From contig JBGUXS010000078.1 in the NCBI GenBank assembly GCA_045118155.1, positions 443 to 64,442 of the forward strand: 64,000 nt of DNA. Direction: 5' to 3'. The notes below the pieces were generated by a model. That model was not told the origin of the DNA, searched no databases, and was given only the letters and a program-made list of their open reading frames with translations. The number at the start of each line of letters is the position of its first letter. The first letter of the stretch is position 1. Of the stretch, positions 29,981 to 38,713 are shown one piece after another. Made by a program: the position numbers and the translations under genes. The DNA comes from Alphaproteobacteria bacterium (GTDB lineage Bacteria > Pseudomonadota > Alphaproteobacteria > CAAHEQ01 > UBA3637).

Positions 29981-31951
29981 ATGCATTACTTAACAGGGGA
30001 AGAAGTTTCTGTCACATCCTTAAAAACAATAGCCCAAGAATTTGGTTTTATGTTGTGGCCGCACCCCGATGATCCTTTCTTATTGCATAAAACACCCTAT
30101 CAAAGTTTTCCAGAAATGCTTTCTGTCCTTACAGATCATATTACAGAAAAAAAACTTAATTCCCTCTTCACTTTCCCTGTTTCTTTCATCTTAGATGCGA
30201 ATGCACAATCTGAATCCTTACATAACTTCTTTAAATATCAAGCCCGTAACCAATTGGATAAAACCATCGGTGTCTTGCTAACTTGCCCCGTTATTTACGC
30301 CTGTGATGTTGCGCAAATTTTTACCGAAGCCTTACATCAACGATTACACTTTCCTAGCACACGTTACAGTAATATTCATATGGCTATTCATGAAGCGCTC
30401 GTCAATGGTTTAGTGCATGGAAATCTAAAACTACCTAGTTCTTTACGGCAATCAGCTCGTGATTTCGTTGATTACGCCCGCATTGTTAATGAACGCTTAT
30501 TAGACCCTGCCTATGCTAATAAATCCATCAGTATTTGGGCTACTTGGAATACCTCTAGATTGGAAATTAAGATTCGGGACGAAGGGGCTGGATATACGGT
30601 TTTACCCCCCCATAAAAAACATGTGGCAGAAAAACGTTCTGGACGGGGGCTTTATCTAATTGCCGGAACTGCTGATTCCTGCACAATTGATGATTTTGGG
30701 CGAGAAATCACATTATCTTTTATTCTAAATAATCTAAACAACGAACAAGATATCGGGGTTTCTGAAAATGCGGCTTTACTGCATGATCCTGTAACCGATT
30801 TTTCGGATTGTCGTATTTTAATCATTGAAGATAACCCCAGTAATCAAATCTTGGTTTCACAACTTTTAAACGTGGTTGGAATTGGTCATATTGAAACAGC
30901 TCAAGATGGGGTTGAAGGCCTTGAAAAAGCATTCAGTATGAAACCAGACTTAGTCATTTTGGACATCACTATGCCCCGAATGAATGGATATGAAGTACTT
31001 CACCAACTCAGAACAAATCAAGATACGGCCTCTATCCCGGTTTTAATTCAAACGGCTTCTGATACACGGGCAGCACGGGATAAAACTTTTAGTGCGGGGG
31101 CAACAGACTTTATCACAAAGCCATTAAATCCTTTGGAATTTTTCTCTCGGATACGGGTACACTTAGAAAATAGATTACTTGTAAAACATCTTGAAACGAA
31201 ACTCGCTCAAATCAATGAAGAACTAGAACTTGCCCAAAAAATGCAAGAAAGTTTATTACCCCCCACGGAAGCACTTCAAGATATCAGCCAACGTTATCAT
31301 CTAGATATTTCTTATACGTTCTTACCTTCTTCCCATTTAGGGGGGGATTTCTGGCAAATTTTTCCATTGGCTAAAGATAAGGTCGCTTTTTATATTTGCG
31401 ATTTTTCGGGACATGGGGTAAGTGCTGCCATGAATACGTTCCGATTACACACCTTAATCGGGCAAATGGATATGACGGCATTGAAAAAGCCTTCCGAATT
31501 TCTTTTTATGCTTAATAATTCTTTGGTCAACTTGTTGCCCAGGGGACAATTTGCTACTTTCTTCTTTGGTATTTTAAACAAGCGACAAGGAACATTAACA
31601 TATGCTGGGGCCAGTTCGCCCTTCCCTATTTTGGTTAAGGACAACAAACCCTCTTTCTTAGATACTTCCGGGATGCCTTTGGGAATTTTAAAGGACGTTA
31701 CTTATAAAGATAAAAAGGTACCATTTTCCAAAGAAATGGGCATTTTACTATACAGTGACTCTTTCACTGAACAACAAAATAAAGAAGGAAATCGCCTTGA
31801 TTATGATGGTTTTATGAAAATGACTCAGACGTGTTTCTCAGAAAAAACATCTCAACAAGTCATTGCCCAAATCATGCAAAAATTTCATGAATTTTCTGAC
31901 ACCCCTAGTACCGATGATATTACGGCTGTCTATTTGAAAGGCCTCTTATGA
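29981..31951 (+). CDS. Fusion protein: RsbW/SpoIIAB-like GHKL Ser kinase domain, CheY-like receiver domain and PP2C (SpoIIE/RsbU-like) phosphatase
   Basis: N-terminal region HMAIHEALVNGLVHGN...RDEGAGY...GRGLYLI (HATPase_c_2-like). Middle region ILIIEDNPSNQ...PDLVILDITMPRMNGYEV...TKP (REC). C-terminal region HLGGDFWQ...FYICDFSGHGVSAAM (PP2C). Confidence 0.7.
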   Translation: MHYLTGEEVSVTSLKTIAQEFGFMLWPHPDDPFLLHKTPYQSFPEMLSVLTDHITEKKLNSLFTFPVSFILDANAQSESLHNFFKYQARNQLDKTIGVLLTCPVIYACDVAQIFTEALHQRLHFPSTRYSNIHMAIHEALVNGLVHGNLKLPSSLRQSARDFVDYARIVNERLLDPAYANKSISIWATWNTSRLEIKIRDEGAGYTVLPPHKKHVAEKRSGRGLYLIAGTADSCTIDDFGREITLSFILNNLNNEQDIGVSENAALLHDPVTDFSDCRILIIEDNPSNQILVSQLLNVVGIGHIETAQDGVEGLEKAFSMKPDLVILDITMPRMNGYEVLHQLRTNQDTASIPVLIQTASDTRAARDKTFSAGATDFITKPLNPLEFFSRIRVHLENRLLVKHLETKLAQINEELELAQKMQESLLPPTEALQDISQRYHLDISYTFLPSSHLGGDFWQIFPLAKDKVAFYICDFSGHGVSAAMNTFRLHTLIGQMDMTALKKPSEFLFMLNNSLVNLLPRGQFATFFFGILNKRQGTLTYAGASSPFPILVKDNKPSFLDTSGMPLGILKDVTYKDKKVPFSKEMGILLYSDSFTEQQNKEGNRLDYDGFMKMTQTCFSEKTSQQVIAQIMQKFHEFSDTPSTDDITAVYLKGLL

Positions 31952-32655
31952 TTCGGGTGTATATAGAGGCTCTGGACCCTAAAAAACCAACACCTCTTTC
32001 TGTGGATCACTATCATTATTTGGCCCACGTTATGCGTTTAAAAGCGGGGGACAGTTTTTTAGCGTTTAATCAACTTCAAGGGGAATTTTTAGCTGTATTT
32101 CAACCTAAAAACAAAAAAGAAGGTCATCTTTTACTACAAAAACAAACGCGTTTACCAGAACAACCTCGTCCGCCTGTAACACTTTATATCGCCCCTATCC
32201 GAAAAGAAAAAATGGAACTTGTGTTACAAAAGGCAACAGAAATTGGCGTAGAGATCATCCAACCTATTTTAACGAAACATACATGCCATCGGCCTTTATC
32301 AAAAGAACGGGCGGATATTATTATAAAAGAAGCGGTAGAACAATCTGAACGGCTGACATTACCTAATTGGCTTCCCCCTATATCTTTGGAAGAACTTCTT
32401 ATTAAACGTTCAACAGATATCCCTCTTTTTTACCTATCCGAACGAGGGGAAACGCAACATATTTCTTTGCCCGCCCCTCCTATAAGCTTTCTTATCGGAC
32501 CAGAAGGGGGATTTTCTAAGGAAGAAATTACCTTATTAGGTCAACAAAAAAACGCCCAAGCTATCAACCTAGGCGCTTTTATTCTACGGGCGGAAACAGC
32601 CGCTATTGCTATGCTAGCGACCTACCGCTTTCATAAACTGTTTTATACAGCTTGA
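31948..32655 (+). CDS. rsmE: 16S rRNA (uracil1498-N3)-methyltransferase
   Basis: 235 aa with a PUA-like N-terminus and the LIGPEGGFSKEE motif. Confidence 0.8.
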   Translation: MIRVYIEALDPKKPTPLSVDHYHYLAHVMRLKAGDSFLAFNQLQGEFLAVFQPKNKKEGHLLLQKQTRLPEQPRPPVTLYIAPIRKEKMELVLQKATEIGVEIIQPILTKHTCHRPLSKERADIIIKEAVEQSERLTLPNWLPPISLEELLIKRSTDIPLFYLSERGETQHISLPAPPISFLIGPEGGFSKEEITLLGQQKNAQAINLGAFILRAETAAIAMLATYRFHKLFYTA

Positions 32656-32831
32656 CGTAGTTTTTCCTCACAGCAACACTTTTCTTCAACAAACCATATA
32701 CGATCTTCAAATTCGGATTTTTTCCCCTTATTGAATTGGCTAACAGGACGAAAATACCCCATAACCCGTGTCCAACATTCCACCGCTTGACGTTCATTAG
32801 AAAATTTTTCTAAAATTTGGTTATCTGTCAT
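32643..32831 (-). CDS. Stand-alone glycyl-radical domain (C-terminal piece of class III ribonucleotide reductase)
   Basis: 62 aa with TRVMGYFRPVSQFNKGKKSEFEDR, matching the NrdD glycyl-radical signature RVCGY...FNxGKxxE. Its ATG overlaps the nrdD stop (ATGA) and AAGGAG lies 8 nt upstream. Confidence 0.6.
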   Translation of the reverse strand: MTDNQILEKFSNERQAVECWTRVMGYFRPVSQFNKGKKSEFEDRIWFVEEKCCCEEKLRQAV

Positions 32832-34897
32832 GCTTTGTTCTCCTTTTCTGCAAGTTCTTGACGTTTTTTTTCAATGAGTTCCGCATCACACTTTGGGCAG
32901 AACTTGTGTTCCCCACTAATATACCCATGCTTGGGGCAAATAGAATAGACAGGGGTAATAGAAACATAAGGAAGATGATAATTTTCTAATACCCGTCTAA
33001 TAAGTGATTTACAAACACTTGCTGAAGAAATCCGTTCATTCATATACAGGTGCAAAACCGTTCCCCCTGTATACTGTGTTTGCAATTCATCTTGATAATC
33101 CAACGCTTTAAACGGATCATCTGTGAAGTTCTGTGGTAATTGAGAAGAGTTTGTATAATAGGGGGCCTCTTTCTTTCCTGCTTGAATAATACCAGGATAG
33201 CGTTTTTGATCTTCTTTGGCAAAACGATATGTTGTCCCTTCAGCTGGCGTTGCTTCCAAATTGTACATATTTCCTGTTTCTGCTTGGAAATCCAGCATTT
33301 TTTCCCGAATATGTGTTAAAAATTCTTTAGCCATCGCCCGCCCTTTTTCCGAAGCAATGTATTCTTCATCATTAGTAAAGTTCCGAATCATTTCATTAAT
33401 ACCATTAACCCCAATCGTGGAAAAATGATTTCGGAATGTTCCTAAATATCGCCGTGTATAAGGATACAACCCCCGATCCATGTGCATTGAAATGGTTTTA
33501 CGTTTAATTTCTAAGGAAGTCTTCGCTAATTCCAGTAATTCATCCAAACGTTTATACAATTCCTCTTTCTTCCCCTTATACAGGTATCCCAAACGGGCAC
33601 AGTTAATTGTAACAACCCCAATAGACCCCGTTTGTTCTGCTGAACCAAATAAACCACCACCTCGTTTTTTCAATTCCGTCAAATCCAACCGTAACCGACA
33701 ACACATTGAACGAATATCTGAAGGCTTCATATCAGAACTAACATAGTTTGAAAAATAGGGTAATCCATATTTAGCCGTCATTTCAAATAACAATTCCGTA
33801 TTTTCAGAATCCCATGGGAATTCATTTGTAATATTGTATGTCGGGATAGGGAAAGTAAACGGCCGCCCTTTGGCATCCCCACTTCCCATAACTTCTAAAT
33901 AAGCCCTATTAATCATATCCATTTCTTTTTGCAGATCACCATAAACAAAATCTTGTTCCACCCCCCCAATGATAGGGTGCCGATTCTTCAAATCTTCAGG
34001 GCAATTCCAATCAAAAGTTAAGTTCGTAAAGGGTGTCTGTGTCCCCCAACGCGATGGTACATTCAAGTTAAAGATGAAGGATTGCATCGCTTGTTTTACT
34101 TCTTCATAAGGTAATTTTTCAATTCGTATAAATGGTGCTAAGTACGTATCCACAGAAGAAAACGCCTGTGCCCCAGCCCATTCATTCTGCAAAGTCCCCA
34201 AGAAATTAATCATCTGGCTAAACGCAGAAACAAGGTGTTTTGGCGGTTTAGATTCTGTCTTATTGGGAACCCCATTAAAACCTTCTTCTAATAAAACCCT
34301 TAAGGACCACCCTGCACAATACCCACTCAACATATCCAAATCATGAATATGATAATCCCCATTTCGGTGAGCTTCCCCAATTTCTGGCGTATACACGTGG
34401 CTCAACCAATAATTGGCCACCACCTTTCCTGCCGTATTTAAAATCAATCCCCCTAAGGAATATCCTTGATTAGCATTTGCGTTCACCCGCCAATCTGACC
34501 GATCTAAATATTCATTAATAGAAGCCACCGCATCAATAACCGTTTTCTTATCATTCCGCATTTTTCCGCGTTGTTCACGGTACACGATATAAGCCCGGGC
34601 AGTTTTGTAATAATTAGAGGAAATTAAAACCTGTTCAACCACATCTTGAATTTGCTCAATATTAGGATAAACCCCGAAAGCAAACCGATGCTTTAAAACC
34701 TTAATAACTTGTCTTGTTAATAACCACGCTTCATCTTGACCGAATTCAGCCGTTGCTTCCCCAGCTTTCAAAATAGCAACCATAATTTTAGTCACATCAA
34801 ACGGATACTGTTGCCCATCCCGTTTAATTACATAGCTCAACGGACTAATATCAATGGTTACATTTAGCGGCTGGGCTCCTGTCAAAACTTGCAACAT
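32828..34897 (-). CDS. nrdD: Anaerobic ribonucleoside-triphosphate reductase large piece (ATP cone through zinc ribbon), lacking the glycyl-radical domain
   Basis: 689 aa with an ATP-cone N-terminus and the NrdD catalytic core. The C-terminal zinc ribbon reads CPKHGY...CPKCD. The ORF ends at an A8 tract. Confidence 0.85.
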   Translation of the reverse strand: MLQVLTGAQPLNVTIDISPLSYVIKRDGQQYPFDVTKIMVAILKAGEATAEFGQDEAWLLTRQVIKVLKHRFAFGVYPNIEQIQDVVEQVLISSNYYKTARAYIVYREQRGKMRNDKKTVIDAVASINEYLDRSDWRVNANANQGYSLGGLILNTAGKVVANYWLSHVYTPEIGEAHRNGDYHIHDLDMLSGYCAGWSLRVLLEEGFNGVPNKTESKPPKHLVSAFSQMINFLGTLQNEWAGAQAFSSVDTYLAPFIRIEKLPYEEVKQAMQSFIFNLNVPSRWGTQTPFTNLTFDWNCPEDLKNRHPIIGGVEQDFVYGDLQKEMDMINRAYLEVMGSGDAKGRPFTFPIPTYNITNEFPWDSENTELLFEMTAKYGLPYFSNYVSSDMKPSDIRSMCCRLRLDLTELKKRGGGLFGSAEQTGSIGVVTINCARLGYLYKGKKEELYKRLDELLELAKTSLEIKRKTISMHMDRGLYPYTRRYLGTFRNHFSTIGVNGINEMIRNFTNDEEYIASEKGRAMAKEFLTHIREKMLDFQAETGNMYNLEATPAEGTTYRFAKEDQKRYPGIIQAGKKEAPYYTNSSQLPQNFTDDPFKALDYQDELQTQYTGGTVLHLYMNERISSASVCKSLIRRVLENYHLPYVSITPVYSICPKHGYISGEHKFCPKCDAELIEKKRQELAEKENKA

Positions 34898-35056
34898 ATA
34901 GTCTTTCCTTTCTTAAAAATTACTAAATATAGTTGTTTTACTCCTTTTTTTCTTTTTCTAGTCAACCGTTTTTCTCCCCCAAAGTCAATAGCTATTTTAA
35001 AAATAAAACAACTTTTTTTTAAACTCATTGAAAAATAGAAATATTTTTTAATGAAT

Positions 35057-35758
35057 CTATAACAAGCCCTCACGCATCAAAGATGTTACGGATTCTTTTC
35101 CTATGATTAAACTATCAAAAATATCTATATGCAATGGACGTAAAACAGCCTTTATTAGGCGGGTAGCTGTAATATCTTCTTCCGAGGGAATGGCCTCCCC
35201 TGACGGATGATTATGCACCAAAATGATATGACTAGCCCGTTCCACAATAGCCCGTTGTGCAATAACTTCCACAGGGATATGAACCATACGTTTTCCCCCT
35301 TTTTGAATAAGTTCATCTTTCAACAGGTACAATTGGGCATCCAATATCAATAAATGCAGTTCTTCCTCTGTTTTGTGGGCATAATTTAAATGGCAATAAT
35401 CCACTAGATTATCCCAATTTTCTAAAATGGGACGTTGAATCACTTCTAATTTTTTAGCCCGTAACGTCAATTCTAAACAAAACTTAAAAAAGGCCGCAGA
35501 TGTTTCTTGTAATCCTTTTATACTTACTAATTCTTCAACAGGGGCTTGCAAAATTCCCAAAATACTTTGAAAACGATCCATCAGTCGTTTTGCAATAGGG
35601 CGTACATCACATCTAGGGATCACAAACATCAAGCCCAATTCAACAAGATCTGTATCAGAAAGGGCCTCTGGTAACGTCAAAAACCGTGTCCGTAACTTCT
35701 GCCGATGTCCCGTATGGATATACCCAGCATCTTTGGTGGTCTTTGACGTTGTTTTCAT
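35057..35758 (-). CDS. radC: RadC/JAB-domain protein
   Basis: JAMM motif HNHPSGEAIPSEEDITATRLI; HhH N-terminal region. Confidence 0.85.
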   Translation of the reverse strand: MKTTSKTTKDAGYIHTGHRQKLRTRFLTLPEALSDTDLVELGLMFVIPRCDVRPIAKRLMDRFQSILGILQAPVEELVSIKGLQETSAAFFKFCLELTLRAKKLEVIQRPILENWDNLVDYCHLNYAHKTEEELHLLILDAQLYLLKDELIQKGGKRMVHIPVEVIAQRAIVERASHIILVHNHPSGEAIPSEEDITATRLIKAVLRPLHIDIFDSLIIGKESVTSLMREGLL

Positions 35759-36567
35759 TACCTTTCTTCCGCTTGCAGTATATTATTTTTAGAAGGATTT
35801 TTAACAAAGTTCAAAATATCTTGGACATATATATTCTTTCCTAAAGTAGGATCTTCTTCTACCTGTTGTATACGTTCAACAAATGTTGTTCCTTCCTTTT
35901 TGGTAAACAACGCCTTATACGCTTTTTGCAAAACGAAGATATCTTCTTTAGACATACCACGACGTTGCAACCCAATTAAATTGAGCCCTGCTAAATGCGA
36001 AGGGATTCCCCCTAGGGCTATCCCATAAGGAATCACATCCCGTGTAATTCCACACATAGCCCCTATCATCGCACCTTTCCCAATTCTGGTAAATTGCAAA
36101 ACCCCTGCCATCCCCCCAACAGTCACATTATCTTCTACTTTTACATGACCAGCTAAGCTAGCATTATTACTCATAACAATATTGTTTCCTAATTTGCAAT
36201 CATGAGCAATGTGGCTATACGCCAAAAAGAAATTATCATTTCCAATACGGGTAATATTATCATCTACATCTGATCCCCCGATGTGAACAGTAACCCCTTC
36301 TCTAAAAGTGTTTCTATCCCCAATAATTAACAAACCATCCGTTGCATCACAACGTTTATGTTGATGCATTCCCCCAATGGTTGCGAACTGGTACACCGTA
36401 CATCCAGAACCCATCGTTGTATGCCCATCAATCACCGCATGAGAAATTACTTTACAACCTGCCCCCATTTTAACAAAAGGACCTATCGTACAAAAGGGCC
36501 CTATTTCAACATCTTCTGCAAGTTCTGCTTTTGGATCAACAATACTAGTAGGATGAATTTTAACCAT
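35758..36567 (-). CDS. lpxA: UDP-N-acetylglucosamine O-acyltransferase
   Basis: Left-handed beta-helix hexapeptide repeats; 269 aa. Position in the lpxD-fabZ-lpxA cluster. Confidence 0.9.
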   Translation of the reverse strand: MVKIHPTSIVDPKAELAEDVEIGPFCTIGPFVKMGAGCKVISHAVIDGHTTMGSGCTVYQFATIGGMHQHKRCDATDGLLIIGDRNTFREGVTVHIGGSDVDDNITRIGNDNFFLAYSHIAHDCKLGNNIVMSNNASLAGHVKVEDNVTVGGMAGVLQFTRIGKGAMIGAMCGITRDVIPYGIALGGIPSHLAGLNLIGLQRRGMSKEDIFVLQKAYKALFTKKEGTTFVERIQQVEEDPTLGKNIYVQDILNFVKNPSKNNILQAEER

Positions 36568-36576
36568 AATCCCTCC

Positions 36577-37050
36577 TTATGCTTTTTTCAACATCATAGC
36601 ACTAAAGACACACTGTGAAACAAGCTTTCCATCCACATAAGCTTGTCCCCGGAATTTAAACACATTTCTAACGACTTGTTCTTTTGTTACCTTCATTTCC
36701 AAAACATCCCCTGGGACAACAGGTTTTCTAAATTTCGCATCATCTAATGTCATAAAGTACACCATCTGATTATAGCGTTCTTCTTCAGGTAACATCATCA
36801 AGACAACAATTCCTGCAGTTTGTGCCATTGCTTCAATCTGCAAAACCCCTGGCATAACTGGATTTTCTGGGAAATGGCCTTGAAAAAAAGGTTCGTTAAT
36901 GGTAATATTTTTTACACCCGTTCCACTAACCCCAGGAACAATATCTTTAACTCTATCAATCATGATAAACGGATACCGATGCGGCAGCATCTTTAAAATG
37001 GTATCTATTCTAATTTCTGGTAACGTTTCTTCCATAGCCGTATCTGTCAT
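36577..37050 (-). CDS. fabZ: 3-hydroxyacyl-ACP dehydratase
   Basis: Hot-dog fold with motif [13 protein letters not shown]. Confidence 0.9.
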
Positions 37051-38126
37051 TTATGACTCCTTTTCAATACCCAAAGTTTTATTTTATCTTTCCACGAAAG
37101 GGGGACCCCTTGTTTCTTTTCCCCTAATTTTTGGATAAGAAGTTGCTGGCGTACCCAATCCAGCTTAGGCTGCGCCGGAGATCCCAAAACCGTCATACCT
37201 GCTGGGACATCCCGCATCACCCCAGATTGTGCCCCAATTTGCGCTCCTGTCCCAATATTTAAGTGTCCTGCAAAACCAACTTGTCCCCCAACGGTTACAA
37301 AATCACCAAATGTACAACTGCCCGCAATACCCACTTGTGCCACAATAACGCAACACCTTCCTAATTTTACGTTATGAGCAACTTGAACAAGATTATCAAT
37401 GCGTGTTCCAGAACCTATTTCTGTATCTCCCATAGCCCCGCGATCAACGGTGGTACAGGCGCCAATTTCAACATCATCTCCAATCTTAACGCGCCCCAAT
37501 TGAGGGCATTTTGTGGGACCAAATTTTGGGGACATCGCAAATCCAAAACCATCCTGCCCAATCATTGCCCCAGGATAAATATAAACTTTATTTCCCATAT
37601 CACAATGCGAAACAACCGCATTAGCCCCAATAATACACCCAGCCCCCATATGGACCCCAGCTTGAACAACGGCATTAGCTTGAATATGGCATCCTGAACC
37701 TATAACAGTATCCGCCCCCACAAAGGCCCCAGCATCAATTTGACATCCTTCCCCAATCTTGGCTGTGGGATCAATAAATGCCTTATCTGAAATTCCCGGA
37801 GTTATTGAATAAGGATAAAACGCCTGAGCTAACAAGCCATATGACCGATGAGGATCAACAGCTATTAAAGCTATGGTTCCTTCCGGCACCAAAGACAAAA
37901 ACTTTTCTGGGACAATCACCGCCCCAGCTTTTGTTTGTTTTAGGCTTTCTCGCACTGAAGGAATAAAGGCCCAGGAAACATCATCAGGGCCTGCTTCATC
38001 TAATGAAGCAACATCTTGCATAACCCTTCCCAAAGCATTGGTATCTGAAACTTTAACATCTGCGATACGGGCAACTTCTTCTAATGTAAAAGGACCCTTT
38101 TTATCAAAAAAACGTTTATCGGCCAT
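37047..38126 (-). CDS. lpxD: UDP-3-O-acylglucosamine N-acyltransferase
   Basis: 359 aa of hexapeptide repeats; it overlaps fabZ by 4 nt. Confidence 0.9.
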
Positions 38127-38140
38127 TTGTATTTTTATCC

Positions 38141-38713
38141 TTATGGTAAATGAAATTGCGTGGGATCAGGATAAACCACCTTAATTTCTTTTTTATTTAA
38201 AATTTTAATAACATCTTCTGTCATATCATAATGCTTTCCTGTATAAACCAATGTCCCCCGAAGCAAAATGATATCATACCCCTTTTTATCCCCGATCTCT
38301 CGGATAATATTTACCGCCGCTTCGTCCACTTCCTTGGAAGCAACTTGTGTGGCCTGCATAATACGTTGAGCCTCTTCTTGATAACGGGCTTGTAATTTTT
38401 CCATTTTCTTTTGCAAAGCCACTAATTTATCTTGGCTAGGCTTTTTACTCTTCCTTAAATCTTGTTCTTCTTTATCTAAAACCGCCTTTTCGGCCATTAA
38501 CTTTACTCGCCAAACATCTTCATATTTCTTTTGTTCCGCGGCAATTGTCTGATAAGCCTTTGCTTCATCCCGTAATTTTTGCCCATCCAAAATGCCAATC
38601 TTCATCCCACTTGGACGCATAAAAAGGAAAAGAATAAATGCCCCCAAGACAATTAAAATGATTTTGAAATAACGCCGAACAAATGGCAGAATTTTTTGTG
38701 CTGACTGTGTCAT
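38141..38713 (-). CDS. skp: Periplasmic chaperone Skp/OmpH
   Basis: 190 aa with a signal/TM segment, coiled-coil-rich and Lys/Glu/Gln-rich. It sits between bamA and lpxD. Confidence 0.7.

Follow-up and report, generated by a model that had tools for sequence, protein, structure and literature searches.

A class III ribonucleotide reductase that probably receives its glycyl-radical loop from a separate 62-residue subunit

The locus described here raises the question of whether a class III (anaerobic) ribonucleotide reductase (RNR) gene, nrdD, that is divided into two ORFs with the glycyl-radical motif on the shorter one, is an artefact, a damaged gene or a genuine two-piece enzyme. Both ORFs lie on the minus strand of the window, meaning the whole 64-kb stretch of DNA that was analyzed (Alphaproteobacteria bacterium, contig JBGUXS010000078.1), and all coordinates are positions in this window. 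The original prediction described an nrdD that stops after its zinc ribbon, a glycyl-radical motif in the next ORF, an ATGA overlap between the two and an AAGGAG 8 nt upstream of the second start, and all of these elements were confirmed in the sequence. The features of the locus are as follows.

34920..34935, minus strand: tentative NrdR-box-like palindrome CAACTATATTTAGTAA, 38 nt upstream of the nrdD start (11/16 consensus positions)
32828..34897, minus strand: nrdD-large, class III RNR catalytic subunit, 689 aa plus stop (PF03477, PF13597, NF006126)
34565..34834, minus strand: ATP-cone domain, residues 22-111 of nrdD-large (Pfam PF03477 match)
33695..33709, minus strand: finger-loop motif S-M-C-C-R, residues 397-401, double-cysteine type (sequence; classification from PMC9669993)
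32888..32938, minus strand: zinc ribbon CPKH-x9-CPKC, residues 654-670 (sequence; aligned to the P. copri NrdD ribbon)
32831..32887, minus strand: C-terminal tail of nrdD-large, DAELIEKKRQELAEKENKA, residues 671-689, predicted helical (relatives and AF2)
32864..32871, minus strand: A8 run, GA-A AAA AAA, encoding E676 K677 K678 (T8 on the plus strand; sequence)
32840..32845, minus strand: Shine-Dalgarno AAGGAG, 8 nt 5' of the small-gene ATG (sequence)
32828..32831, minus strand: ATGA stop/start overlap of the nrdD-large TGA with the small-gene ATG, translational coupling (sequence)
32643..32831, minus strand: gene for the putative stand-alone glycyl-radical subunit, 62 aa plus stop (Pfam NRDD positions 530-560)
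32745..32771, minus strand: glycyl-radical motif TRVMGYFRP, small-protein residues 21-29, with the Gly25 codon at 32757-32759 (alignment A1, profile and AF2)
32670..32678, minus strand: C-terminal Cys cluster CCC, small-protein residues 52-54 (sequence; relatives)

The 689-aa ORF contained the features of a class III RNR catalytic subunit, namely the 10-stranded NRDD barrel, the finger-loop cysteine and the zinc ribbon. Pfam searches matched PF13597 (E = 2.2e-176) over profile positions 2-529 of 562, as well as the ATP-cone family PF03477 (E = 2e-21), and an NCBIfam search gave 1133 bits against NF006126 (cutoff 548). The SMCCR cysteine is the presumed thiyl-radical site, which would receive the radical from the glycine. 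The zinc-ribbon ligands were Cys-His-Cys-Cys (CPKH...CPKC), the same as in single-chain relatives. The polypeptide ended in ...CPKCDAELIEKKRQELAEKENKA, 19 residues past the ribbon, and the R-V-x-G-Y motif was not found in it; the motif was located in the separate 62-aa ORF. The best 120 NrdD homologues were 681-716 aa long, with one 570-aa partial sequence, and every one of them was missing R-x-x-G-Y. Among relatives, the tail past the zinc ribbon was kept in frame (…ELIEKKRKELEA…), and an AF2 model of the concatenated chains placed a helix at residues 668-685 (pLDDT 80-94).

The 62-aa protein (MTDNQILEKFSNERQAVECWTRVMGYFRPVSQFNKGKKSEFEDRIWFVEEKCCCEEKLRQAV) had NRDD as its sole Pfam match, at profile positions 530-560. 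No dedicated Pfam or NCBIfam family exists for it, and neither Gly_radical (PF01228) nor a GrcA model matched at E <= 0.01 in these two collections. Residues T21, R22, V23, M24, G25, Y26, F27, R28 and P29 were invariant in alignment A1, and the window's protein retained all invariant residues of the family. We found 517 homologues, the best 120 of which were all 46-80 aa long. A profile search of 1.84 billion representatives returned 994 matches at E <= 1e-10; the best 150 were all 52-153 aa long, and 148 of the 149 newly returned began with Met. These stand-alone homologues (52-153 aa) represent at least 150 distinct clusters at 50% identity. The Met-Thr-Asp N-terminus of the small gene was also conserved. 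Most close relatives had a CxC/CCC motif, compared with only 15 of 149 diverse representatives, so the CCC cluster is apparently specific to the clade of the 62-aa protein. The small genes were annotated as "hypothetical" or misnamed as full NrdD.

The same division was observed well beyond the window. Exactly the same 62-aa protein, beside a 689-aa NrdD, was encoded on seven independent contigs that came from different samples and had been built with different assemblers. Orthologues, which the original prediction proposed to compare for single or split chains, were split at 52 of the 56 GTDB species-level loci with adjacent genes. The split loci included cultured Pleomorphomonas and Telmatobacter bradus. 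Relative to nrdD, the small gene was in frame +1 at 23 split loci, +2 at 18 and 0 at 11, with in-frame stops; spacers measured 1-197 nt, in addition to three 4-nt overlaps. The ATGA overlap recurred in six conspecific contigs (L001-L006), in an 84%-identical relative (L087) and in loci L045 and L077. Most split relatives carried a GGAG-type site 5-10 nt 5' of the small gene, which started at its own ATG. The same gene order, nrdD' (685 or 686 aa), then the small gene (76 or 58 aa), then a gene for a radical-SAM protein, was seen in other lineages. According to a crude neighbour-joining tree, changes of the split state occurred at least nine times, always at the same linker. Selection on both genes was strongly purifying: between the window and L087, dN/dS was 0.012 for nrdD-large (294 synonymous and 32 non-synonymous differences) and 0.023 for the small gene, and it was about 0.15 for the core of the small-protein family. 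The split is evidently an ancient, selected and evolutionarily fixed gene fission. Conservation across relatives strongly supported the suggestion in the original prediction that this is a real class III RNR in two pieces, one of them a free-standing glycyl-radical module.

The activase gene was where the window differed from its relatives. No NrdG was detected in the 64-kb window: no ORF of at least 90 aa had CX3CX2C, and tblastn with three NrdG2 sequences gave no match, which extends the earlier observation that none lies nearby. In relatives, the gene directly downstream of the small one encodes NrdG2 (TIGR02495, 202 bits, cutoff 131), and in the window rsmE occupies this slot. The missing linked nrdG proves to be a peculiarity of the window's lineage, and since the gene is absent from the 64 kb, activation in the source organism would rest on an unseen gene. 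The palindrome CAACTATATTTAGTAA matched the NrdR consensus at 11 of 16 positions, compared with 13-15 of 16 for the site at the same position (-36 to -40) in relatives.

Several explanations would make the two ORFs something other than a working pair. Homopolymer length errors are common, and one added A would join the frames, as originally predicted, although the product would be 751 aa and not about 745 aa. We nevertheless give practically no weight to a sequencing or assembly error that hides a true A9 and a single 751-aa NrdD. All seven independent contigs, which stem from different sequencing runs and assemblers, gave the same two ORFs, and the split was found in 52 other species. The run itself was A6 in the six conspecific contigs (GAGAAAAAAC) and A4-G-A3 in L087 (GAAAAGAAAC, no length change), with the frames and the ATGA overlap unchanged in both cases. 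Further, relatives have conserved tails that match the zero-frame tail KKRQELAEKENKA but not the fused-frame peptide TSRTCRKGEQS. The A8 is evidently a strain-specific synonymous variant, incidental to the encoding of Lys-Lys by an AT-rich genome, and it did not cause the split. Because the run is interrupted synonymously in close relatives with the frames kept, the earlier description of a gene "split at an A8 homopolymer" was misleading. These variants also speak against rescue of a frameshifted gene, either through slippage during transcription or through a -1 frameshift of the ribosome, in which the functional product would be a fused NrdD. Poly-A slippage is known from AT-rich endosymbionts, A-AAA-AAA is phased for a -1 tandem slip, and the ATGA overlap sets the small ORF in the -1 frame. 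However, the slippery run was not conserved even within the species. Most relatives had spacers of 10-45 nt, and up to 197 nt; frames +1 and +2 were both common, and 11 loci were in the same frame with a stop between. The small gene has its own Shine-Dalgarno and conserved Met-Thr-Asp start, and it occurs alone at other loci and in phages. We consider this rescue extremely improbable at the locus, and rejected programmed frameshifting or slippage as a general mechanism, given the lack of a conserved slippery site and the downstream ATG and Shine-Dalgarno found everywhere. In this strain only, the in-phase A-AAA-AAA may yield a minor fused product by a -1 slip. A decaying locus, in which the operon has lost nrdG and the two parts of nrdD are turning into pseudogenes, would fit the lack of nrdG in 64 kb, the rsmE in its place and the weaker NrdR-box-like site. 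It is very unlikely, as both ORFs were intact in every sampled strain and in the 84%-identical relative, the dN/dS values of both genes are incompatible with relaxed selection, and the family-invariant residues were all kept. A pseudogene was rejected on the grounds of purifying selection and intact ORFs. A split intein, an intron and translational bypass were also rejected, with junctions from a 4-nt overlap to 197 nt and ~30 extra residues (19 + about 13 aa), which are too few for a split intein.

Alignments to T. maritima NrdD, together with the Pfam NRDD ranges, showed that the two pieces are exact complements. The large ORF covered T. maritima residues 100-612 and the small-protein profile covered 611-644, around Gly621, with its motif aligned to R618-I-V-G621-Y. 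This match was reached with the A1 profile, whereas phmmer against the PDB with the 62-aa sequence alone returned nothing useful. Single-chain relatives contained the same sequence, joined by a linker of 2-25 aa. AF2 modeling of the two chains concatenated gave a pLDDT of 84 and a pTM of 0.79, with 80-92 in the junction region. The model contained a hairpin around the glycine, which fell between strands 707-712 and 715-718, and its target-normalized TM-scores against solved class III RNRs were 0.63-0.77. The input was an artificial single chain with an alignment containing single-chain homologues (alignment A3); consequently, AF2 reproduced the canonical fold by homology, which is no independent test of complex formation. 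For the concatenated sequence with no alignment supplied, the pLDDT was 36.

The small gene was also found on its own. Intact orphan copies occurred at 23 bacterial loci with no nrdD or nrdG within 10 kb, and five genomes carried an operon copy and an orphan copy together. Neighbours of the bacterial orphans were unrelated housekeeping genes that encoded a porin, a transglutaminase-like protein, RNase H, alanine racemase and IleRS, with no nrd genes among them. On phage-like contigs from IMG/VR, 52 of 80 loci were orphans, for which neither nrdD nor nrdG was detected in up to 10 kb of flanking sequence. These neighbourhood searches used queries from the subfamily described here only and covered at most 10 kb on each side. 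Terminase, baseplate, tail fibre and DNA polymerase genes were present at the five IMG/VR orphan loci whose neighbours were checked. The deposited phage genomes of INPHARED gave one weak match, to a full NrdD, and nothing else; phage copies are so far known solely from IMG/VR contigs. The persistence of bacterial orphans and the presence of the small piece alone in phage-like contigs argue that a free radical-carrying subunit may be selectively valuable in itself.

The analysis shows that nrdD is split, that the split is conserved and that both genes are under purifying selection; it also shows the operon context, the existence of orphan and phage copies, and that the two pieces together complement each other against single-chain NrdD. 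Very probably these findings reflect a real, fixed fission of a class III RNR in which the glycyl-radical loop is supplied in trans as an obligate subunit. Association of the two chains, activation in trans and any exchange or repair are inferred. An NrdG2-type radical-SAM activase, encoded elsewhere in the source genome and directly downstream in most relatives, would take a hydrogen from Gly25 of the small protein. The small protein would bind the large subunit by packing its N-terminal helix on the C-terminal helix of that chain. The beta-hairpin of the small protein would enter the barrel as the covalent domain does in canonical NrdD, and the radical would then pass to the cysteine of the finger loop. 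When oxygen destroys a glycyl-radical enzyme, it cuts the chain at the radical glycine, so a detachable 62-aa carrier would let a cell or phage replace the small piece alone. By analogy with GrcA, the small protein is possibly also an exchangeable spare part. We tentatively propose, at somewhat less than even chances, that it founds a large unrecognized family of exchangeable "radical cartridges" for class III RNR, of which bacteria keep spares and phages bring their own. A neutral fission, after which the two chains simply form a normal NrdD again and the small genes found as orphans or in phages are duplicates of no consequence, seems rather unlikely. It would agree with the position of the split, in a linker of variable length among single-chain relatives, and with the split class II RNR NrdJa/NrdJb, which works like its fused relatives (PMC4520616). 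Against it stand the repeated changes of the split state at that one linker in the crude tree, the intact orphans at 23 bacterial loci and the small piece alone in 52 phage-like contigs.

If the cartridge proposal were true, oxygen damage would cost a 7 kDa protein only, the unlinked copies would be bacterial spares, and a phage cartridge would sustain the anaerobic dNTP supply of the host during infection. This would be the first glycyl-radical enzyme with its radical site obligatorily on a separate subunit and, apart from those of the formate lyases, the first glycyl-radical protein to act as a spare part or in trans. The split RNR would offer a ready system for activase recognition of a glycyl loop, with a peptide-sized substrate, and would allow repair of oxygen-damaged RNR through subunit exchange to be tested directly. 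The fission would also explain truncated-looking NrdD genes in gut Alphaproteobacteria, Pleomorphomonas, Telmatobacter and others, and the small gene would be a previously unnoticed phage auxiliary gene. In annotation, the large genes of split loci could pass for pseudogenes.

Canonical class III RNRs combine a single-chain NrdD with NrdG, as in E. coli, phage T4, T. maritima and P. copri (PDB 1H7A, 4U3E and 8P23). The system described here shares with them the ATP-cone, barrel, Cys finger loop, zinc ribbon and R-V-x-G-Y hairpin, in the same order, and its relatives have the NrdG2 activase gene in the operon. It differs in that the hairpin belongs to a 62-aa polypeptide with a gene of its own, the chain of the large subunit stops 19 residues past the zinc ribbon, and nrdG is unlinked to the window's locus. 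Full-text literature searches found no description of a split NrdD with a separate glycyl subunit. More than one ORF is also seen in phage nrdD genes broken by group I introns, inteins and homing endonucleases, such as T4 I-TevII and Aeromonas phage phiAS4 (PMC3653736). Those breaks are made by mobile elements, are positioned elsewhere and are spliced or sporadic, whereas the junction here, from a 4-nt overlap to a 197-nt spacer, is too short to hold an intron or intein, and relatives share the arrangement. Another parallel is NrdJa/NrdJb of Pseudomonas aeruginosa and Thermus phage phiYS40, in which a catalytic chain is encoded on two consecutive ORFs whose products must associate (PMC4520616, PMC3653736). 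That enzyme belongs to another RNR class, is split at another position and has no radical-carrying module. We know of no reported orphan or phage-only copies of one NrdJa/NrdJb piece.

Glycyl-radical enzymes have otherwise been described with the radical glycine on the catalytic chain, and the only known free modules, GrcA/YfiD and T4 Y06I, serve pyruvate formate-lyase (PFL). A 2026 review knows spare-part proteins only for formate lyases (PMC13450708), and a 2021 paper speculated that other spare-part glycyl-radical proteins may exist. Like GrcA/YfiD and T4 Y06I, the protein described here is small and free-standing, contains the glycyl-radical loop only and, in the orphans, is encoded apart from the enzyme, with unlinked extra copies in bacteria and copies in phages. 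Unlike GrcA, which has 127 aa, it has 62 aa and derives from NrdD instead of PFL, with no family-level homology between the two. The partner NrdD lacks a glycyl domain, which would make the 62-aa protein obligatory and not a backup.

The class III ribonucleotide reductase (RNR) of the window is encoded in two adjoining pieces:

32828–34897, minus strand: large gene (nrdD), 689 aa, with an ATP-cone and Pfam NRDD profile positions 2–529 of 562
32643–32831, minus strand: small glycyl-radical gene, 62 aa, with Pfam NRDD positions 530–560

Both ORFs of the original prediction, the overlap of the small-gene ATG with the large-gene TGA (ATGA), and an AAGGAG 8 nt upstream of the small gene were all seen in the sequence. 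The large ORF matched the NCBIfam model for ribonucleoside triphosphate reductase (NF006126, 1133 bits), and the small ORF gave only sub-threshold NCBIfam matches, at the far C-terminal end of NrdD models. Compared with solved structures, the large ORF aligned with residues 100–612 of T. maritima NrdD, and the small-protein profile with residues 611–644 around the radical Gly621. Together the two pieces therefore complement each other exactly to one canonical NrdD, divided after the zinc ribbon (CPKH…CPKC) and before the glycyl-radical hairpin. In the small-protein family alignment, the strand before the glycyl motif (ERQAVECW, window 32772–32795) always held one Cys at an alternating position: P-V-E-C-W in the window's clade and P-C-E-[VI]-W in others, with both (P-C-E-C-W) in a few.

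A Cys cluster (CCC, CxC or CxxC) following the glycyl-radical core was conserved in the window's clade (homologues P0001–P0070), and lies at residues 52–54 of the window's small protein (32670–32678). It was absent from single-chain relatives and occurred in 15 of 149 distant small proteins. The cluster could be a metal-binding site, or a redox tail similar to the C-terminal cysteine pairs that occur in class I and II RNRs.

The split had been attributed to a homopolymer sequencing error, to a frameshift rescued by slippage on a poly-A tract, or to a real two-piece class III RNR. The first two readings draw on an A8 run (window 32864–32871), which codes for Glu-Lys-Lys; one extra A does join the frames as proposed, giving a product of 751 aa rather than about 745 aa. 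Seven contigs, drawn from different samples and assemblers, encode the exact 62-aa protein, each time adjoining the same NrdD. In six of these contigs (97–99% nucleotide identity), the run reads GAGAAAAAAC, shortened to A6 by a synonymous GAA-to-GAG change, and the corresponding sequence in L087, a relative with 84% identity, is GAAAAGAAAC. In all these contigs and in L087, the ATGA overlap was identical and the length of the sequence unchanged. Furthermore, the zero-frame tail KKRQELAEKENKA is similar to the tails of relatives (…KKRKELEA…), and the fused-frame peptide TSRTCRKGEQS is unlike them.

Sequencing error is therefore ruled out by the seven contigs, the synonymously interrupted run, the unchanged ATGA and the conserved zero-frame tail; the frames stay the same where the run is A6 or otherwise interrupted. 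Slippage-dependent rescue is likewise rejected, since the run is not kept in the conspecific contigs or in L087, its interruption brings no change in length, and the zero-frame tail is conserved. The A-run is not the cause of the split, and the remaining reading, a real two-piece class III RNR, is the right one.

The two-piece arrangement extends well beyond the window. Homologues of the 62-aa protein numbered 517, and the best 120 of these were all 46–80 aa long; common to these 120 were the N-terminus MTDxEIL and the invariant residues R14, E18, T21–P29, N34, G36, K37, E40, R44, F47 and E49. Scanning GTDB at one genome per species returned 80 loci, mostly from uncultured gut and rumen Alphaproteobacteria, but also from Holosporales, cultured Pleomorphomonas species and Telmatobacter bradus. 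The glycyl segment directly followed an NrdD gene in 56 of the 80, and this orthologue comparison, which the original prediction had called for, found 52 of the 56 split and four single-chain. The split pairs stood in relative frames +1 (23), +2 (18) and 0 (11), with spacers typically of 10–45 nt (extremes: a 4-nt overlap and 197 nt), and the small gene had its own ATG and a GGAG-type ribosome-binding site. The R-x-x-G-Y motif was missing from every one of the 120 homologues nearest to the large protein (81–100% identity), which were 681–716 aa long, save for one 570-aa partial sequence. A profile search with the small protein, covering 1.84 billion 50%-identity representatives, gave 4393 matches at E ≤ 1e-3 and 994 at E ≤ 1e-10; the top 150 were all 52–153 aa long, and all but one of the 149 newly returned sequences (148) began with Met.

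Among 120 relatives of the single-chain sister L060 (Chthoniobacteraceae), 108 were single-chain, with a linker of 2–25 aa from the ribbon to …RQPCExWTRVMGY, and 12 were truncated. Two of the truncated sequences were looked up and proved to be an nrdD' (685 or 686 aa) followed by a small ORF with an NRDD hit (76 or 58 aa) and a radical-SAM gene. A crude neighbour-joining tree built from large subunits put the window's clade in a single block of 43 split sequences; over the whole tree, the split state changed at least nine times, a rough number. The pattern suggests repeated fission at one and the same linker, or else transfer or re-fusion. In an alignment of locus-derived sequences, MAFFT placed the small-protein N-terminus (TDxEILxxxxxER) on the large-subunit tail (CDxELIEKKRKEL), the segments compared being window 32831–32887 and 32793–32831. 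This placement hints that fission may have involved a short linker duplication; it may equally reflect a chance resemblance of two charged helices.

Both genes are under purifying selection. Comparison of the window with L087 gave 294 synonymous and 32 non-synonymous differences for the large gene (dN/dS 0.012), and 18 and 4, respectively, over 50 codons for the small gene (dN/dS 0.023). The core of the small-protein family had a dN/dS of about 0.15 (unsaturated pairs).

The small gene also occurs alone. In 23 of the 80 GTDB loci (L007–L010, L013, L017, L018, L022, L036 and 14 others), it was intact, mostly with a ribosome-binding site, and no nrdD or nrdG was detected within 10 kb. Its neighbours were unrelated housekeeping genes (porin, transglutaminase-like lipoprotein, RNase HI, alanine racemase). 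In five genomes an operon copy and an orphan copy coexisted, the two being identical at 35–54 of 61–63 residues. The 80 IMG/VR loci comprised 52 orphan small genes with no nrdD or nrdG2 detectable nearby within up to 10 kb, 27 phage NrdDs in one chain, joined by a very short linker (CEKCGEACEVWTRVMGY), and one split pair. The approximately 52 predicted phage contigs with an orphan gene were 4–87 kb long (mostly 15–50 kb). Neighbours in the five phage orphan loci checked included terminase, baseplate wedge, tail fibre, DNA polymerase, ligase and Holliday-junction resolvase genes; a search of deposited phage genomes returned no stand-alone small gene. Example orphan genes on phage contigs are:

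L174, 10001–10159
L184, 9140–9259
L197, 10001–10120

That the small protein acts in trans as an independent module is indicated most strongly by its orphan and phage copies. The stand-alone NrdD-type glycyl-radical mini-gene is possibly a new auxiliary gene of phages, comparable to T4 Y06I.

Nearly all split relatives have, immediately downstream of the small gene, a radical-SAM gene (~230 aa, GCPLRCPFCHN) whose product matches TIGR02495 NrdG2 (202 bits, cutoff 131). In the window, the surroundings of the two genes are:

31948–32655, plus strand: rsmE-like 16S rRNA methyltransferase gene, converging on the small gene
34920–34935, minus strand: NrdR-box-like palindrome CAACTATATTTAGTAA, a weaker copy (11/16 consensus positions)
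35057–41061, minus strand: conserved envelope cluster bamA, ompH/skp, lpxD, fabZ, lpxA and radC, upstream of nrdD

The reported absence of nrdG within 10 kb holds for the full 64-kb window. As relatives have nrdG2 at the position of rsmE, the activase gene was displaced in the window's lineage (the window, L087 and conspecific contigs L001–L006), where a convergent rsmE takes its place. The rsmE-like and small genes overlap by 13 nt at their 3' ends, with no intrinsic terminator found in between. In view of how strongly selection conserves both genes, the activase gene most likely lies elsewhere in this genome. The identical NrdD (P0121) sits on an NCBI contig of 234.6 kb. Most gut alphaproteobacterial loci (L011–L051) carried the palindrome as ACACAATATATAGTAT, with 13–15 of 16 NrdR consensus positions, at a near-fixed 36–40 nt upstream of split nrdD. 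The synteny of the envelope cluster is the same in L001 and confirms a Gram-negative alphaproteobacterial chromosome context.

AF2 modeling of the concatenated chains gave a pLDDT of 36 from the single sequence, and a pLDDT of 84 (pTM 0.79) with an alignment of single-chain relatives, truncated large subunits and small proteins. The model placed helices at the large-subunit tail (668–685) and, a short one, at the small-protein start (692–698), and strands 707–712 and 715–718 flanking Gly714 (Gly25 of the small protein). Junction blocks scored 80–92, and target-normalised TM-scores against solved class III RNRs (9D3X, 8P23, 4U3E, 1HK8) were 0.63–0.77. The predicted structure shows pieces compatible with the canonical fold; it is no independent test of complex formation, since the chain was artificial and the alignment held fused homologues.

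An obligate two-subunit architecture is very probable. The small protein would dock on the large subunit via paired helices at the former linker and insert its hairpin beside the SMCCR finger loop, with Gly25 activated by NrdG2. Oxygen cuts glycyl-radical enzymes at the radical glycine, as established for PFL, and E. coli NrdD is likewise cleaved there. Because cleavage occurs at this residue, a separate carrier would limit O2 damage to a 7-kDa protein, which could be replaced from an operon, orphan or phage copy. Such an exchange, or spare-part, function is a tentative proposal, with somewhat less than even chances.

The finding is real, and the evidence is computational throughout. Source annotations call the small protein "hypothetical protein" or "anaerobic ribonucleoside-triphosphate reductase"; Pfam and NCBIfam have no model dedicated to it, and full-text searches turned up no account of an NrdD whose glycyl subunit is a separate protein. 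A June 2026 review names formate lyases alone among glycyl-radical enzyme classes as having identified spare-part proteins (PMC13450708), and Andorfer et al. 2021 merely speculated that others may exist (PMC8683613). This is a widespread split architecture of a known enzyme system, maintained under selection and, as far as we could determine, so far undescribed. Phage nrdD genes interrupted by introns, inteins or homing endonucleases (PMC3653736) are a different phenomenon. The closest precedent for a split RNR is the class II NrdJa/b (PMC4520616). With no Gly_radical or GrcA match, the small protein lies outside the GrcA/YfiD family; GrcA/YfiD, together with T4 Y06I, is its closest functional analogue.
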